A DNA stretch of 64,000 nt from a virus. Its lineage: Duplodnaviria > Caudoviricetes. The notes under the pieces were generated by a model that had not been told where the DNA came from, searched no databases, and worked only from the letters and a program-made list of their open reading frames with translations. The DNA lies in IMG/VR virus record IMGVR_UViG_2834293421_000001, positions 1 through 64,000 of that record; one strand, given 5' to 3'. Below, piece after piece: positions 1-39,275 of this stretch; the stretch's first letter is position 1, and each line of letters begins with the position of its first letter. A program made the translations under genes and the position numbers.

Positions 1-1530
1 TTACTTATTTTTTATTAACCTTGGGTATATTTTTATATTAAACCTTGAAGTTCTTTTTTTAGGTTCTCTGCTATAGTCTATGTAATCAATAACTTCTTTT
101 AGCAACTCATTTCTTTCTTGCATGTCATTACTTTGATAATATAATTCTAGTACTTTTTTGATTTGAGGTATTATATCTGCTATAGAGAACACTGATTCTT
201 TTTCATTTTCTAAATCTTTTTTAGCCTGAGATAAATTAGATCTATTTAAATCAATTTTATCTGTTAGAATCTTAGATCTATCTAAATATGTATCTACATC
301 ATAAATTCCTTGCTCTAATAAGTTATGTAAATTTTCCTTTTGTTTCATCAAGGTTTGATATTCAGATTCGAGTGATTTTATAATAGAGTAGTAAGATTCT
401 AAATTTGGATTTTTATTTTCGTTAGAATCTAAATCTTTAATTGAAACATTATAAGCATCCACCCAGTCTGCAAGCTCATTGATTATATCTTTTTCTAAAA
501 TATCAAGTCTGACACCTCTATTTTTACCACAGTTTAAGCACTTAACAAATTTAACAATCTCTTTATTTTTATAAGTCGACTGCTGAGCTATCATTCTATG
601 ACCACATTCAGAGCAAACTATTAGGCCGGCTAGGGGATTAGTTATAGTTGAATGTTGTTTAGTAGAAGGTATGAAATTTGATTTAAATAAACTTTGAGCT
701 TCTAAAAATATAGATTCATCTATTATAGGTTCATGAATTCCTTTGGCTTCAATACGCTCATCTATAGGTCTAGTTTTAGAGCTATTTTTTCCTCTCTCAA
801 CTTTATTCCATACAACATAGCCTGCATAAGTTTTATTTTTTAATATATCTCTGACACCTTTATCATACCAAGTTCTGCCTGTAGTAGTTTTTAGACCTAA
901 TGAATTTAAATGAGTGGCTATTTTAACGCCACCATAATGTTTATTAACATATAAATCAAATATCATTCTAACAACTTCTGCTTTATCTTTATCTATAACC
1001 ATAGATTTATTTCCGAATTCATCGAATACAAATTTATATCCATAAGGAGGTTTACTAGCTATAAATTTGCCTTCTTCAACACTTTTAACTCTACCTCTTT
1101 GCATACGTCTAGTAATAAGCTTAAGTTCTTTACGAGCCATAAATGCTTCAAATTCAGAGTATTCTTCATCCCACTCATTATTTAAATCATATGTTTTTCT
1201 AGGTGTTATAATTTTAGTATTGGACTTTTTAAAAGTTTCCAGTATAAGCCCTTGGTCTTGCATATTACCTCTACCAAGTCTATCTATATCCATAACTAAT
1301 ACAGAATCATAGAAACCATTTTTTACTTCCTCTAAAAGTTCTAACATTTTAGGTCTATAAGAAATACTTTCACCGGATACTAGTTCTTCTTTTATTTCTA
1401 CTATATTTAAATTTTGTTCTTTTGCTATCTTTAATAGAGTAGATCTATGTCTACTTAAAGTTTCAAATTCACCTTGCTTTTCAGCTTCTTCATCTGAACG
1501 TGACTTTCTTAAGTAAATACAAGTTTTCAT
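1..1530 (-). CDS. Large serine recombinase (integrase of prophage 1)
   Basis: YLRKSR catalytic motif, DRLGRG, recombinase domain PPYGY, Zn ribbon CSECG...CLNC, coiled coil. Confidence 0.95.
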   Translation of the reverse strand: MKTCIYLRKSRSDEEAEKQGEFETLSRHRSTLLKIAKEQNLNIVEIKEELVSGESISYRPKMLELLEEVKNGFYDSVLVMDIDRLGRGNMQDQGLILETFKKSNTKIITPRKTYDLNNEWDEEYSEFEAFMARKELKLITRRMQRGRVKSVEEGKFIASKPPYGYKFVFDEFGNKSMVIDKDKAEVVRMIFDLYVNKHYGGVKIATHLNSLGLKTTTGRTWYDKGVRDILKNKTYAGYVVWNKVERGKNSSKTRPIDERIEAKGIHEPIIDESIFLEAQSLFKSNFIPSTKQHSTITNPLAGLIVCSECGHRMIAQQSTYKNKEIVKFVKCLNCGKNRGVRLDILEKDIINELADWVDAYNVSIKDLDSNENKNPNLESYYSIIKSLESEYQTLMKQKENLHNLLEQGIYDVDTYLDRSKILTDKIDLNRSNLSQAKKDLENEKESVFSIADIIPQIKKVLELYYQSNDMQERNELLKEVIDYIDYSREPKKRTSRFNIKIYPRLIKNK

Positions 1531-3752: not shown

Positions 3753-3814
3753 GTAAGATTTCACCTCGATTCATATATATATTATTAATGATACAATATA
3801 AATATATAACAAAA

Positions 3815-4148
3815 ATTACTTAATAAGCAACGAAAATTTCAAAAAAAATAAAGAAAGTTACTTAATAAGTGTTGACAATGAATATTTAAGGATATAAAAT
3901 GTTACTTAAGAAGTAACAAAAGAGGTGAAATAAATGGTACAGATAAATGAAATTAAAGGTAGAATGAAAGCAGAAGGATACACTCAAGCTGAGTTGGCAA
4001 AAAAGTTAGGTATATCAGCTAAGACATTAAGTACAAGGTTAAAAAAAGGTGTATTTGGTTCAGATGAAATCGAAAAAATGATAACTATTTTAAAAATTGA
4101 AAATCCAATAGAGATTTTTTTTAAAAACTAAGTTACTTATTAAGTAAC
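3815..4148. promoter_or_regulatory. Lysis/lysogeny switch: four 17-bp operators (GTTACTTA-N-TAAGTAAC) at 3815, 3857, 3901, 4132 and sigmaA promoter TTGACA(3872)-17-TAAAAT(3895)
   Basis: Palindromic repeats read directly; the 4132-4148 copy is perfect. Confidence 0.85.
3934..4131 (+). CDS. Cro-like HTH protein
   Basis: YTQAELAKKLGIS HTH, divergent from repressor. Confidence 0.88.
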   Translation: MVQINEIKGRMKAEGYTQAELAKKLGISAKTLSTRLKKGVFGSDEIEKMITILKIENPIEIFFKN

Positions 4149-5512: not shown

Positions 5513-5716
5513 ATGAAAATTAAATTAGATTTAAAATCATTAAAACTAGAAGTAGTCAGAAGTGGATATTCAATTAATGAAATGGCAGAAATAACAGGAT
5601 TAGCAAGACAAACAATATCAAAAGCATTGAACAATGAAATATCAGTAAGACCATCTACAGCAGGTAAGATAGCTAAGGCTTTAGGGGTAGATGTTAAAAG
5701 CATAATTCTAGAATAG
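5513..5716 (+). CDS. XRE HTH protein
   Basis: SINEMAEITGLARQTIS...KIAKALGV; RBS AAGGAGG. Confidence 0.85.
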   Translation: MKIKLDLKSLKLEVVRSGYSINEMAEITGLARQTISKALNNEISVRPSTAGKIAKALGVDVKSIILE

Positions 5717-5740
5717 GACAATTTTAGAAATTCATATGAT
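5711..5740 (+). promoter_or_regulatory. sigmaE-like promoter with overlapping SpoIIID-like box
   Basis: GAATAGG-N15-CATATGAT; TAGGACAATT (5714-5723) fits WWRRACARNY; twin at 47432-47461. Confidence 0.55.
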
Positions 5741-5763
5741 TTATATATAGGGAGGTTGAAATT

Positions 5764-5967
5764 ATGGCTACTAAAAGAAGAGAAACAGAATATGGAACTA
5801 TTGCAGAAACAGAGCATGGAATTATTGAAATAATCTCTCCAGAAGTAAGACTTGGGAGAAAGCAAACAGAAGAAGAAATTCAAGCTATACTTGATAGAAT
5901 TGCAAGGGTTAACTATAAAATAGCTAAAAGATTATACAAAGAAGGCAAGTTAGAGATTAAGAAATAA
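5764..5967 (+). CDS. Small protein, candidate recombination directionality factor
   Basis: 67 aa, RBS GGGAGG; function inferred from context only. Confidence 0.5.
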   Translation: MATKRRETEYGTIAETEHGIIEIISPEVRLGRKQTEEEIQAILDRIARVNYKIAKRLYKEGKLEIKK

Positions 5968-6028
5968 TATTATGCTCAAAGGGCTTAAGCTCTTGAGTTT
6001 AAATAAATTAGGACAAGCATAGGAGGAA

Positions 6029-6298
6029 ATGAGCATGTTTAAATTTTTAAGGAATTTAATACCGGTATCAAGAAAGAGATATAACAGATATCAAGAGGGA
6101 CTTTTAATTGATATAAAAAGGCTAGAAGATAAAAAATTTAAATTAGAAAATACAATTAAAGAAAATAACAGTGTAATTAGAGCATTAGATGATTTATTAA
6201 ATTATAAAGATGCAGAGATAGAGATACTTAAAAGAAAAGTTACATGGTCAAGTGAAATGCTTGAAAAAAGAGATATTGAGAATAGACAAATTGTATAA
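6029..6298 (+). CDS. Hypothetical coiled-coil protein
   Basis: ORF with RBS AGGAGG. Confidence 0.7.
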   Translation: MSMFKFLRNLIPVSRKRYNRYQEGLLIDIKRLEDKKFKLENTIKENNSVIRALDDLLNYKDAEIEILKRKVTWSSEMLEKRDIENRQIV

Positions 6299-7386: not shown

Positions 7387-8205
7387 ATGAGTGATTTAAA
7401 AAATAAATTAGCAAATAAAGCTACAGGATCAACAACAGTAAAGAAGGTTAGTCCAAATAAAGCAATGGAACAGTTAATGACACAAATGGCAGGCCAAATA
7501 AAGAAAGCTTTACCAGAACATATGTCAAGTGAGAGATTCCAAAGGGTAGCATTAACTGCTTTTGGGAGTAATCCTAAATTCTTAAATTGTGAGCCTATGA
7601 GTTTCTTAGCTGCAATGATGGACTCAGCACAATTAGGATTAGAGCCAAATACACCTTTAGGACAAGCTTACTTAATACCATATGGAAATAAGGTTCAATT
7701 TCAAGTTGGATACAAAGGGTTACTAGAATTAGCACTAAGAAGTGGCAAGATAAAAACTTTATATGCACATGAAGTAAGAGAAAATGACAAGTTTGAGGTT
7801 AAGTATGGACTACATCAAGACTTAATACATGAACCAGTACTAAAAGGTGATAGGGGCGAAGTCATAGGATACTATGCAGTTTATCACCTAGATACTGGAG
7901 GTCATAGTTTTATATTCATGACAAAGGATGAAATATTAACTCATGCTAAGAACAAGAGCAAAACTTTCAATAACGGACCTTGGCAAACTGATTTTGATGC
8001 AATGGCAAAGAAAACAGTTATAAAACAACTTTTAAAATATGCTCCATTAAGCATAGAAATGCAAAGAGCAGTTAGTTCAGATGAAACTGTTAAAACAAAG
8101 ATAGATGAAGATATGAGTTTAGTATTTGATGAAACGGAGTCTATAGAAGCTAACTTTGAGATAAAGGAAGATGAAGATGGACAAACATCTATAGAAACAA
8201 ACTAA
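7387..8205 (+). CDS. recT: RecT single-strand annealing protein
   Basis: AQLGLEPNTPLGQAYLIPY, GYKGL, PWQTDFDAMAKKT. Confidence 0.95.
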   Translation: MSDLKNKLANKATGSTTVKKVSPNKAMEQLMTQMAGQIKKALPEHMSSERFQRVALTAFGSNPKFLNCEPMSFLAAMMDSAQLGLEPNTPLGQAYLIPYGNKVQFQVGYKGLLELALRSGKIKTLYAHEVRENDKFEVKYGLHQDLIHEPVLKGDRGEVIGYYAVYHLDTGGHSFIFMTKDEILTHAKNKSKTFNNGPWQTDFDAMAKKTVIKQLLKYAPLSIEMQRAVSSDETVKTKIDEDMSLVFDETESIEANFEIKEDEDGQTSIETN

Positions 8206-39215: not shown

Positions 39216-39275
39216 GTAAAAAATAAATGTTATCATCAAACTGACTATTGAATATCGGTTCTAACATTTACTTTA
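39216..39275. other. Right attachment junction of prophage 1
   Basis: Inverted repeat taaatgtta (39224-32)/taacattta (39262-70) centred on 39247, where the host ORF stops. Confidence 0.8.

Follow-up and report, generated by a model that had tools for sequence, protein, structure and literature searches.

We lean towards reading the segment from 5711 to 6018 of the analyzed window (the whole stretch of 64,000 nucleotides, which comes from a Caudoviricetes record and holds two prophages) as a portable developmental excision cassette, in which a mother-cell promoter would drive a directionality factor that removes the prophage from a sporulation gene. This reading draws on the promoter motifs and their geometry, their conservation in front of unrelated small genes, the linkage of these genes to serine integrases and the splitting of the target genes, and it places the cassette of prophage 1 with the SPbeta and skin kind of element as a further member.

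Finding the directionality factor of a large serine integrase is difficult, since, according to the accessible text of a published account (PMC12286644), such factors have neither sequence nor gene order in common. Should the cassette mark them, the 24-nt pattern described below would pick out candidates for no fewer than four Clostridia integrase families, and could thus yield new integrase/factor pairs for genome engineering. Developmental gene rearrangement in Clostridia would also come to include an SsuA/YtlA-like transporter and dpaA, also in relatives that carry the labels Clostridioides difficile and Paraclostridium sordellii.

Promoter motifs and their possible readers

The features of prophage 1 that are considered here are the following.

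1–1530, minus strand: integrase 1, large serine recombinase (509 aa); its stop codon is bases 1–3, where the record begins
5711–5721, plus strand: −35 region with box 1, GAATA ([GT][AC]ATA) fused to GGACAA; full string GAATAGGACAA
5733–5740, plus strand: −10 element CATATGAT, 11 nt 3' of GGACAA and 17 nt 3' of ATA
5745–5749, plus strand: predicted transcription start, placed from the position of the −10 element; leader of about 15–19 nt
5750–5755, plus strand: ribosome-binding site GGGAGG, read in the sequence
5764–5967, plus strand: 67-aa gene, small-protein class A, candidate recombination directionality factor of integrase 1
5970–6002, plus strand: imperfect hairpin (core 5974–5998) followed by TTTAAATAAATT; at best a weak terminator, lineage-specific
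6009–6018, plus strand: box 2, TAGGACAAGC, abutting the ribosome site of the next gene (6029–6298)
39245–39802, minus strand: N-terminal 185 codons of an SsuA/YtlA-like binding-protein gene, cut by prophage 1 (attR side)

All motif coordinates given by the initial annotation were verified directly in the sequence: GAATAGG lies at 5711–5717 and is followed after 15 nt by CATATGAT at 5733–5740, TAGGACAATT occupies 5714–5723, and the TAG at 5714–5716 also terminates the upstream HTH_3 gene (5513–5716). In B. subtilis the −35 element of sigmaE is [GT][AC]ATA, and WWRRACARNY is the consensus of SpoIIID. Promoters of sigmaE in C. difficile consist of an ATA −35, a spacer of 16–18 nt and a CATA-type −10; CATATTAT/CATATAAT-type −10 elements are common to sigmaE and sigmaK promoters there, the ATA −35 belonging to sigmaE (PMC3789822, accessible part). 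At GAATA-N17-CATATGAT the ATA, a spacer within this range and a −10 of the form CATA...T are all present, and box 1 (TAGGACAAtt) agrees with the 10-bp SpoIIID site TAGGACAAGC at 8 of 10 positions.

Taken singly, these motifs occur in the AT-rich window at about chance level, and each alone is therefore unremarkable. The loose consensus WWRRACARNY is uninformative (74 matches vs. 74.85 expected), TAGGACAA was found five times against 2.52 expected (13 of 100 shuffles reach five), and the generic sigmaE pattern ATA-N17-CATANNNT has 12 matches for 11.26 expected. The joined pattern RGACAA-N11-CATANNNT, with an expectation of 0.14, occurs at two sites, which are the cassette of prophage 1 and its twin in prophage 2, and a count of two was reached in none of 100 shuffles. 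Contigs from RNA libraries (three studies; four of 16 runs placed) lie over 5755–5905, 5795–6099 and 5832–5985, and as contigs they indicate neither start, strand nor timing.

Several other identities were considered for the boxes and rejected. Operators of the phage repressor would be expected between repressor and cro, where zero copies were found (3765–3933), and no copy precedes the late operon, where a late-activator site would stand. The Spo0A box is TGTCGAA, and such a reading on the other strand would require TC where 19/19 clusters have GG, while a sigmaK promoter requires AC at 16–17 nt from CATA, a distance that is 13 nt here.

Alternatively, the readers of the boxes might not be sigmaE and SpoIIID but, for instance, the housekeeping polymerase with another monomeric host regulator, or a stationary-phase factor, which would make the unit an ordinary early or middle phage promoter, with the small gene perhaps still encoding an excision factor. 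We regard this as unlikely, even though the factor reading the boxes is a putative one, named from sequence comparison, and generic sigmaE matches stay at the chance level. SpoIIID is encoded by host relatives (141 bits vs. Pfam PF12116), in keeping with the preferred reading. Other points from the hosts favor the alternative: the SpoIIID-type boxes of the host relatives differ from those of the cassette at two positions (their own sigK and spoIIID promoters carry TATACAAGC and TATAACAAGC and not GGACAA), and the strict pattern was found in the two host genomes at the prophage only. The consensus proposed for SpoIIID of C. difficile, KRTAACARK, has TA where the cassette boxes have GG. Moreover, a SpoIIID site overlapping a −35 could repress and not activate, as is reported for spoVD of B. 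subtilis. Against a sigma-70-type promoter, however, stands the distance from AGGACA to any TATAAT-like hexamer, which at 14 nt is too short, and the positions conserved among cassettes are those of [GT][AC]ATA and CATAnnnT, not of TTGACA and TATAAT. The box, which is not palindromic, is the same as the site bound by a SpoIIID monomer, the same geometry drives sprB, which is experimentally mother-cell-specific, and the insertion targets belong to sporulation regulons. The cassette occurs under several Clostridia names (Clostridium, Cellulosilyticum, Lachnospirales, Romboutsia), so whichever factor reads the boxes must be widely conserved in the hosts.

Small gene, hairpin and second box

The 67-aa protein has relatives in 85 clusters, every one of which is named hypothetical, and it had no Pfam or PHROG match at E-values up to 0.1; an Xis/excisionase-type helix-turn-helix (e.g., Pfam HTH_17) was rejected as its identity, as no profile matched. 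Its AlphaFold2 model (pLDDT 84) has three strands followed by two helices, and comparison with PDB structures, directionality factors included, gave no solved look-alike: Foldseek returned no PDB match at E-values up to 0.001 and the best Z in VIA-align was 3.1. A sequence-profile search of the PDB gave designed coiled coils and calmodulin only, the ESM Atlas search unnamed clusters only (scores of 0.84 or lower), and the phage collection no DNA match and a single weak protein match (E 0.04).

The hairpin, which the initial annotation had counted as part of the cassette, is present at its core of 5974–5998, but it is weak, unconserved and poor as a terminator. The folding energy of −11.6 kcal/mol corresponds to a z-score of −1.27 (matched by 18 of 200 shuffles), only three T stand 3' of the stem, a terminator scan of the window did not list it, and it was found in the near-identical loci L002–L012 only; the identity of an intrinsic terminator was consequently dropped.

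Box 2 is an exact copy of the 10-mer TAGGACAAGC, the high-affinity SpoIIID site of B. subtilis (PMC11180830). The exact 10-mer occurs at two sites in the window, 6009 and 7658 (the latter within recT), and seven matches were found with up to one mismatch (2.88 expected). Of the 19 non-redundant cassettes, 12 have a box of the form [GT][GT]ACAAG 3' of the stop codon, compared with 55 of 1392 background windows (4%). Of the two parts that might insulate the cassette from the downstream lytic genes, only the second box is conserved, and it also persists in an element in which no lytic genes follow (L197).

Conservation of the unit and linkage to serine integrases

The 24-nt query pattern ATAGGACAATTTT-N7-CATA retrieved 64 viral-contig stretches, and in 55 of them a conserved unit was recognized, which consists of [GT][AC]ATAGGACAA-N11-CATAnnnT, a ribosome site and a gene of 54–93 aa with its start codon 38–59 nt after the start of the motif, as is also the case in 19/19 clusters. 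The encoded proteins fall into at least 12 unrelated classes, and ten further cassette proteins were, like the 67-aa protein, without a Pfam match. Among 19 non-redundant cassettes, ATAGGACAA is identical in all, the preceding G/T and A/C, which are unforced positions, are kept in 18/19 and 19/19, and T stands at the eighth −10 position in 14 of 19 clusters; ascertainment of these sets largely began from the motif or the small gene. Box 1 was also found at constant spacing in 19/19 relatives that were retrieved via the protein alone, despite differing upstream genes. In the family searched around genome G001, 13 of 112 genomes contain the 24-nt pattern and none its reversed control. It is this conservation in other DNA, and not the motifs in the window alone, that supports the unit.

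A twin of the cassette is present in prophage 2 of the same window.

41850–43442, minus strand: integrase 2, large serine recombinase (530 aa; 24% identity with integrase 1)
47434–47461, plus strand: twin promoter, ATAGGACAATTTT-N7-CATAAAAT
47480–47731, plus strand: 83-aa gene, class B, candidate directionality factor of integrase 2; no sequence kinship to class A
47753–47759, plus strand: twin box 2, GTACAAG, at the ribosome site of the following gene

A common fold of the small proteins was considered and rejected, as class A is predicted to have three strands and two helices and class B a disordered head and three helices.

The small gene lies on the same element as the integrase and is inherited together with it, as is expected of a directionality factor. 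All integrase-1 relatives with at least 50% identity have the cassette (25/25, about 8 lineages), while 33 of 36 relatives below 45% identity are without it by the patterns used (the exceptions are L162, L181 and perhaps L176). In mosaic loci the only persistent parts are the integrase, the small gene and, partly, ImmA and the Xre repressor, and the non-phage elements L197, L198 and L199 are reduced to integrase, cassette gene and cargo. A large serine recombinase was found in 11 of 17 motif-bearing viral records and a terminal tyrosine integrase in none; the tyrosine-type candidates of motif-bearing phages were limited to internal XerD-like frames of 183–226 aa and one 366-aa frame in G008. 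On these grounds the 67-aa protein is a candidate directionality factor of integrase 1.

A promoter timed by sporulation could nevertheless express a small protein of another function, i.e., a regulator that holds off the lytic programme, an anti-repressor that starts it, or an actor on host spore development. The small proteins are indeed extremely diverse, and the cassette slot is always directly 3' of the repressor/cro switch, where regulators also occur; known directionality factors, however, are just as diverse (PMC12286644, accessible text). Six motif-bearing records are without any recombinase, five of them being 66–85% complete, but in all six the end of the record lies about 0.5–4 kb from the cassette, in the direction of the expected integrase. 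Box 2 is kept where no lytic genes follow (L197), but so is the small gene, which stays by the integrase in non-phage elements devoid of any lytic programme to regulate, and its class tracks the integrase family and not the repressor or replication modules. We thus consider such functions distinctly unlikely and retain the directionality factor as the preferred reading. Chance resemblance in AT-rich DNA, with no dedicated regulatory unit, would suit the single motifs, which occur at the expected rate, but is extremely improbable, as it is contradicted by the conservation of the box across loci with unrelated flanks, the fixed ORF distance, the reversed control and the joined-pattern count.

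Target genes, proposed mechanism and known systems

In the binding-protein gene that prophage 1 interrupts, the reading frame is split at a conserved site and both halves are intact. The C-terminal half stands beside the integrase in L019 and L197 but is absent from the present record, which begins at the integrase stop codon. One and the same binding-protein gene is split by integrase-1 elements; among the 78 genomes with this gene, 14 have it cut and most have it intact, and 11 of these 14 contain the exact motif. The remaining three, G119, G055 and G045, are without it and match a shorter pattern: G119 exactly and at a distance of 51 kb, G055 with one mismatch at 30 kb, and G045 on other contigs. 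Overall, cassette-bearing elements target the SsuA/YtlA-like binding-protein gene, the ATPase gene of that system or dpaA, the latter being split by other cassette-bearing integrases.

In B. subtilis, ytlA, ytlC, ytlD, spoVFA and spoVFB are genes of the sigmaK regulon. For mother-cell expression of the target, the relatives considered were CD1891, CD1904 and CD1927 of C. difficile and ytlA, ytlC and ytlD of B. subtilis, and the binding-protein gene of the window is presumably an orthologue of YtlA or CD1891. By eye, its upstream region has no clear sigmaK promoter. A literature search for CD1891, CD1904, CD1927, CD1892, CD1903 and CD630_18910 gave Saujet 2013 as the only relevant paper, and one for intervening elements in dpaA or spoVFA gave no describing paper.

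According to the mechanism that we propose, a sigmaE-type promoter, GAATA-N17-CATATGAT, whose −35 is fused to the near-ideal SpoIIID site GGACAA, would start transcription near 5747 during sporulation and express the 67-aa gene alone. The product would act as directionality factor of the integrase at 1–1530 and make attL x attR recombination possible within the mother cell, so that prophage 1 would leave the SsuA/YtlA-like binding-protein gene in time for its sigmaK-dependent expression, while the forespore would retain the prophage. DNA damage would bring transcripts of the early lytic promoters into the 67-aa gene by read-through, as with SPbeta's sprB. A probable role of the SpoIIID site at 6009–6018, the second of the cassette, is to restrict transcription running on into the recombination and replication genes, or to tune the unit in some other way. 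One SpoIIID site is predicted to activate or time the promoter and the other to insulate the unit from downstream DNA. The identity of the sigma factor and of the protein acting at the boxes, the interaction of small protein and integrase, and the role of box 2 are the parts that we infer. The core of this reading was already contained in the initial annotation, and it is partly supported, by the conservation of the promoter geometry before unrelated small genes, its identity with that of sprB, the persistence of the small gene with the integrase and targets related to the sigmaK regulon, with the hairpin removed as a conserved part.

A broader proposal is more speculative, and we would sooner doubt than accept it. 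The two-box sigmaE/SpoIIID cassette may be a portable module of many unrelated serine-integrase elements in spore formers, present in a looser form in SPbeta, that marks their cognate directionality factors through sequence alone, and SpoIIID at box 2 may act as a developmental roadblock that uncouples mother-cell excision from the lytic programme. The parts of this module are a box 1 fused to the −35, a short leader, a small ORF and a box 2 about 20 nt past the stop codon.

Known systems were compared on the basis of the accessible portions of the respective reports. These agree with the background that the initial annotation had cited, i.e., the −10 of sigmaE (PMC3789822), the need for CD1234 (PMC5025042) and the promoters of sprB (PMC4191935). 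SPbeta of B. subtilis, an active prophage that encodes a large serine integrase (SprA), sits inside a mother-cell sporulation gene, as is proposed for prophage 1, and its directionality-factor gene sprB (58 codons), which shares a transcript with upstream genes upon induction and is transcribed by itself in sporulation, can be likened to the 67-aa gene (PMC4191935). The mapped mother-cell promoter of sprB reads AGACAA-N11-CATATAAT, with the same spacing of box and −10 as in the cassette, and it is the sole match to RGACAA-N11-CATANNNT in 12.4 kb (0.03 expected). Both systems thus have the geometry RGACAA-N11-CATAnnnT and a leader of about 20 nt, predicted in the case of the cassette, the distance from transcription start to start codon being 20 nt in sprB (PMC4191935) and 14 nt in CD1234 (PMC5025042). 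They differ in that the −35 of sprB is an imperfect AAG and that of the cassette ATA, no second box stands 3' of sprB, sprB lies at the prophage end far from the integrase whereas the 67-aa gene is about 4 kb from it, and the target of SPbeta is spsM in place of an SsuA/YtlA-like binding-protein gene. No sequence similarity was found between SprB and the 67-aa protein.

C. difficile's skin element, with its recombinase CD1231, offers a second parallel (PMC5025042, accessible portions). CD1234 is likewise small (72 aa) and of no known family, it has a sigmaE promoter, SpoIIID dependence and a 14-nt leader, for all of which the cassette has predicted counterparts, the serine recombinase is constitutively expressed, and the host belongs to the bacterial family of this prophage's relatives. 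In contrast to the cassette, where GGACAA is fused to the −35, the box of CD1234, TGTAACAAT, has its centre 46 bp upstream of the start site; the skin element is, moreover, defective and located in sigK, and these portions describe no second box for CD1234.

The gin element in gerE of Bacillus cereus is a non-prophage with recombination genes only, like L197, L198 and L199, and differs from the cassette elements in host class and target gene (PMC5595907, accessible portions). The yin element in yabG of Clostridium botulinum combines a serine recombinase with a 53-aa candidate directionality factor proposed from AlphaFold models, and its small gene stands behind a putative sporulation promoter, proposed to be of the sigmaK type, whereas the cassette promoter is predicted to be of the sigmaE type; in the same portions of that report yin is described as unique to one isolate, while the cassette is widespread (PMC10747680).

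Cassette promoter and the factors that would read it

Every string named in the initial annotation was located at its position in the window, and the candidate sporulation-timed cassette that it described in prophage 1 (box 1, GGACAA, fused to the minus-35, then a CATA-type minus-10, a ribosome site, a small gene and box 2) is real. Its core reading, that the 67-aa gene encodes a directionality factor (a small protein enabling attL x attR recombination by a large serine integrase) timed by sporulation, is the best-supported explanation, and for the whole chain we hold it to be slightly better than an even bet. The provirus record has a length of 74,289 bases, the first 64,000 of which are covered by the window.

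Features of the window
1-1530, minus strand: integrase 1, large serine integrase of 509 aa, at the start of prophage 1; the record begins at its stop codon
After integrase 1, in order: two unknown genes, ImmA, Xre repressor, cro-like gene, Rha-type anti-repressor
Between the Rha-type anti-repressor and the HTH_3 gene, reverse strand: DUF2513 gene
5513-5716: HTH_3 gene, 67 aa
5764-5967: candidate directionality-factor gene, 67 aa, directly after the HTH_3 gene in gene order
3' of the candidate gene, in order: 89-aa coiled-coil gene, YqaJ, RecT, DnaD-like gene
39245-39802: N-terminal half of a binding-protein gene
47434-47461: twin promoter in prophage 2, ATAGGACAATTTT-N7-CATAAAAT, 5' of an unrelated 83-aa gene

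WWRRACARNY was found 74 times in the window (74.85 expected), ATA-N17-CATANNNT 12 times (11.26 expected) and TAGGACAA five times (2.52 expected); taken alone in an AT-rich window, such single motifs mean little. For RGACAA-N11-CATANNNT, the joined pattern, there are two matches (0.14 expected), a number reached in none of 100 shuffles, and its second match is the twin cassette in prophage 2, where GTACAAG stands 3' of the 83-aa gene, at the ribosome site of the next gene. A second exact copy of TAGGACAAGC was seen inside recT, on its coding strand (7658-7667).

In the cassette, ATA precedes CATA by 17 nt, the AC of the box precedes CATA by just 13 nt, and the [GT][AC]ATA is also a fit to the minus-35 of B. 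subtilis sigmaE. As described in PMC3789822, C. difficile sigmaE promoters combine a minus-35 ATA, a spacer of 16-18 nt and a minus-10 such as CATATTAT, while sigmaK promoters have AC in place of ATA, so that with these distances the match is to sigmaE. Box 2 (6009-6018) is identical, in every letter, to the high-affinity 10-mer of the B. subtilis SpoIIID monomer, as that site is given in PMC11180830. Both host relatives searched encode SpoIIID (141 bits) and carry an uninterrupted sigK; sigK has the promoter TTATACAAGC-N19-CATATAAT in each of the two species (L043, L044), and spoIIID (L041, L042) the promoter ATA-N16-CATATATA, 5' of which two TATAACAAGC boxes form an inverted repeat resembling a terminator. 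These boxes of the host relatives are related to those of the cassette, not identical. At the sequence level, the chief doubt is the difference from KRTAACARK, the SpoIIID consensus proposed for C. difficile in the account of Serrano et al. (PMC5025042).

The strongest parallel for the cassette promoter is SPbeta, where the sprB promoter (AGACAA-N11-CATATAAT in the SPbeta record) matches the joined pattern and is its sole match in 12.4 kb (0.03 expected). According to the sprB transcript data of Abe et al. (PMC4191935), the sporulation start lies 20 nt upstream of sprB's start codon, and the transcript is mother-cell-specific and monocistronic during sporulation and co-transcribed with upstream genes after mitomycin C. 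The cassette would belong to the SPbeta/skin kind.

Conservation of the cassette

The cassette is a conserved unit, and its promoter module is unusually conserved. Relatives of the 67-aa protein formed 11 clusters in a single-sequence search and 85 in a profile search, all named hypothetical, with source names of Paraclostridium/Paeniclostridium, Romboutsia, Terrisporobacter and Clostridioides. All 19 loci found via this protein (17 viral, 2 genomic) have box 1 and CATA upstream at identical spacing, even where the upstream gene differs, and 18 have GGACAAG 3' of the small gene, replaced by AGACAAAG in L020. Scanning the viral collection for ATAGGACAATTTT-N7-CATA returned 64 stretches (uncultured Clostridium, Clostridia metagenome genome, Cellulosilyticum, Niameybacter/Holtiella, Romboutsia), 55 of them with an ORF of 54-93 aa and its ribosome site starting 38-59 nt past the motif; L096 runs off the fetched end, seven stretches lack such an ORF and in one the ORF lies 115 nt away. 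These ORFs represent at least 12 unrelated classes. Among the 112 family genomes searched around G001, 13 contain the same motif and none its reversed control.

After clustering at 70% protein identity (19 clusters), ATAGGACAA was invariant, but most clusters had been ascertained with that very string; of the two unforced bases before it, the first is G/T in 18/19 clusters and the second A/C in 19/19, and the eighth base of the minus-10 is T in 14/19. The TAG inside box 1 (5714-5716 in the window; also in L002-L006 and L020) is the stop codon of upstream genes that are unrelated between lineages, which marks the left cassette edge as a place where phage modules have repeatedly been joined by recombination. 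The family genome G055 contains ATAGGACAA-N11-CATA six times without mismatch, spread over four contigs; in most copies the box is followed by AAATT. This suggests several cassette-bearing elements within one genome.

The small gene, its integrase and box 2

Among the 17 motif-bearing viral records, 11 encode a large serine recombinase and none a terminal tyrosine integrase; the six others, five of which are 66-85% complete, have no recombinase, and all end ~0.5-4 kb from the cassette on the repressor side. The class of small protein tracks the integrase family: class A (the 67-aa protein and relatives) accompanies relatives of integrase 1 (54-99% identity to it), class B (the 83-aa protein and relatives) relatives of integrase 2, and a GRYxxKITH class a third family. 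In the eleven mosaic loci compared, the sole persistent parts are integrase, ImmA, Xre repressor (in part) and small gene, while Cro, Rha, the HTH and coiled-coil genes, YqaJ/RecT and DnaD vary. In a reciprocal search seeded with integrase 1 rather than the small gene, the cassette accompanied 25/25 relatives at ≥ 50% identity (~8 lineages; ATG replaces ATA in two loci); below 45% identity it accompanied just L162, L181 and perhaps L176 of 36 relatives. Judging from these sequence associations, the small gene probably encodes the directionality factor for its integrase, and the conserved promoter module may be of practical use for finding such factors.

The class A model (pLDDT 84) is built of three strands with two helices, that of class B (pLDDT 76) of a loose head with three helices; compared with solved structures, neither had a look-alike, nor did they resemble each other. 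Directionality factors share no fold, as stated in PMC12286644, and the predicted diversity agrees with this, without being positive evidence.

Past the stop codon, [GT][GT]ACAAG occurs within 120 nt in 12/19 clusters (55/1392 background windows); the box lies between +10 and +24 in ten of the 12. Box 2 is a conserved feature, usually abutting the ribosome site of the next gene. The hairpin that had been counted as part of the cassette is present 3' of the 67-aa gene; it is weak, unlisted by the terminator scan and absent from the L013, L018, L019 and L020 lineages, being in the window lineage an insertion between stop codon and box 2 that shifted the box from ~+20 to +43. Box 2 could plausibly act as a roadblock; it is also kept in minimal elements, where no lytic genes lie downstream.

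Minimal elements and insertion targets

Such stripped-down elements, devoid of phage genes, occur in three genomes; besides an integrase and cargo, each has a cassette whose small protein is a class A relative of 93 or 62 aa. These loci (L197, G024:C1:1981000-2000900; L198; L199) span ~8-9 kb with an integrase-1-like recombinase, and all occupy one identical site of the binding-protein gene. L197 and L198 carry an AraC-like gene, a PadR gene, an ECF sigma/anti-sigma pair and an ABC exporter, and L199 a methionine-type ABC importer. For relatives of the 93-aa protein, the source labels are Clostridioides difficile or Clostridioides sp.

The target of integrase-1 elements is a binding-protein gene of the SsuA family, split at ...NVRTD(I/V)Q | FGV...; its C-terminal half adjoins the integrase in L019 and L197. 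This gene was found in 78/112 family genomes, with the frame cut to 185-216 codons in 14, 11 of which have the exact 24-nt motif. In G054, an intact copy lies on one contig and a 67-codon fragment at the end of the motif-bearing contig, which suggests a second gene copy or an assembly split. Integrase 2 adjoins a permease and a C-terminal fragment of 51 residues, which gave no match in the family search and looks like the C-terminal part of the transporter's ATPase. The two prophages would together interrupt a single putative sporulation transporter. The third integrase family cuts dpaA at ~position 135, and a fourth integrase is located close to the 3' end of this gene. In the core sporulation list, ytlA, ytlC, ytlD, spoVFA and spoVFB are sigmaK-regulon genes (PMC3416734), and we infer that the window's genes are the same genes.

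The dipicolinate synthase gene dpaA (spoVFA) is split by cassette-bearing serine-integrase prophages in L120 (2642-3124), L124 (203-625) and L117 (2170-2666); the cut lies at ~residue 135 for two related integrases, which seem to be oppositely oriented, and near residue 264, immediately before dpaB, for a third, unrelated one. In G053, a second cassette-like unit (L199 478-687) is located beside a ferredoxin gene, ~9 kb to the left of the minimal element; its motif is relaxed and its ORF has 66-69 aa.
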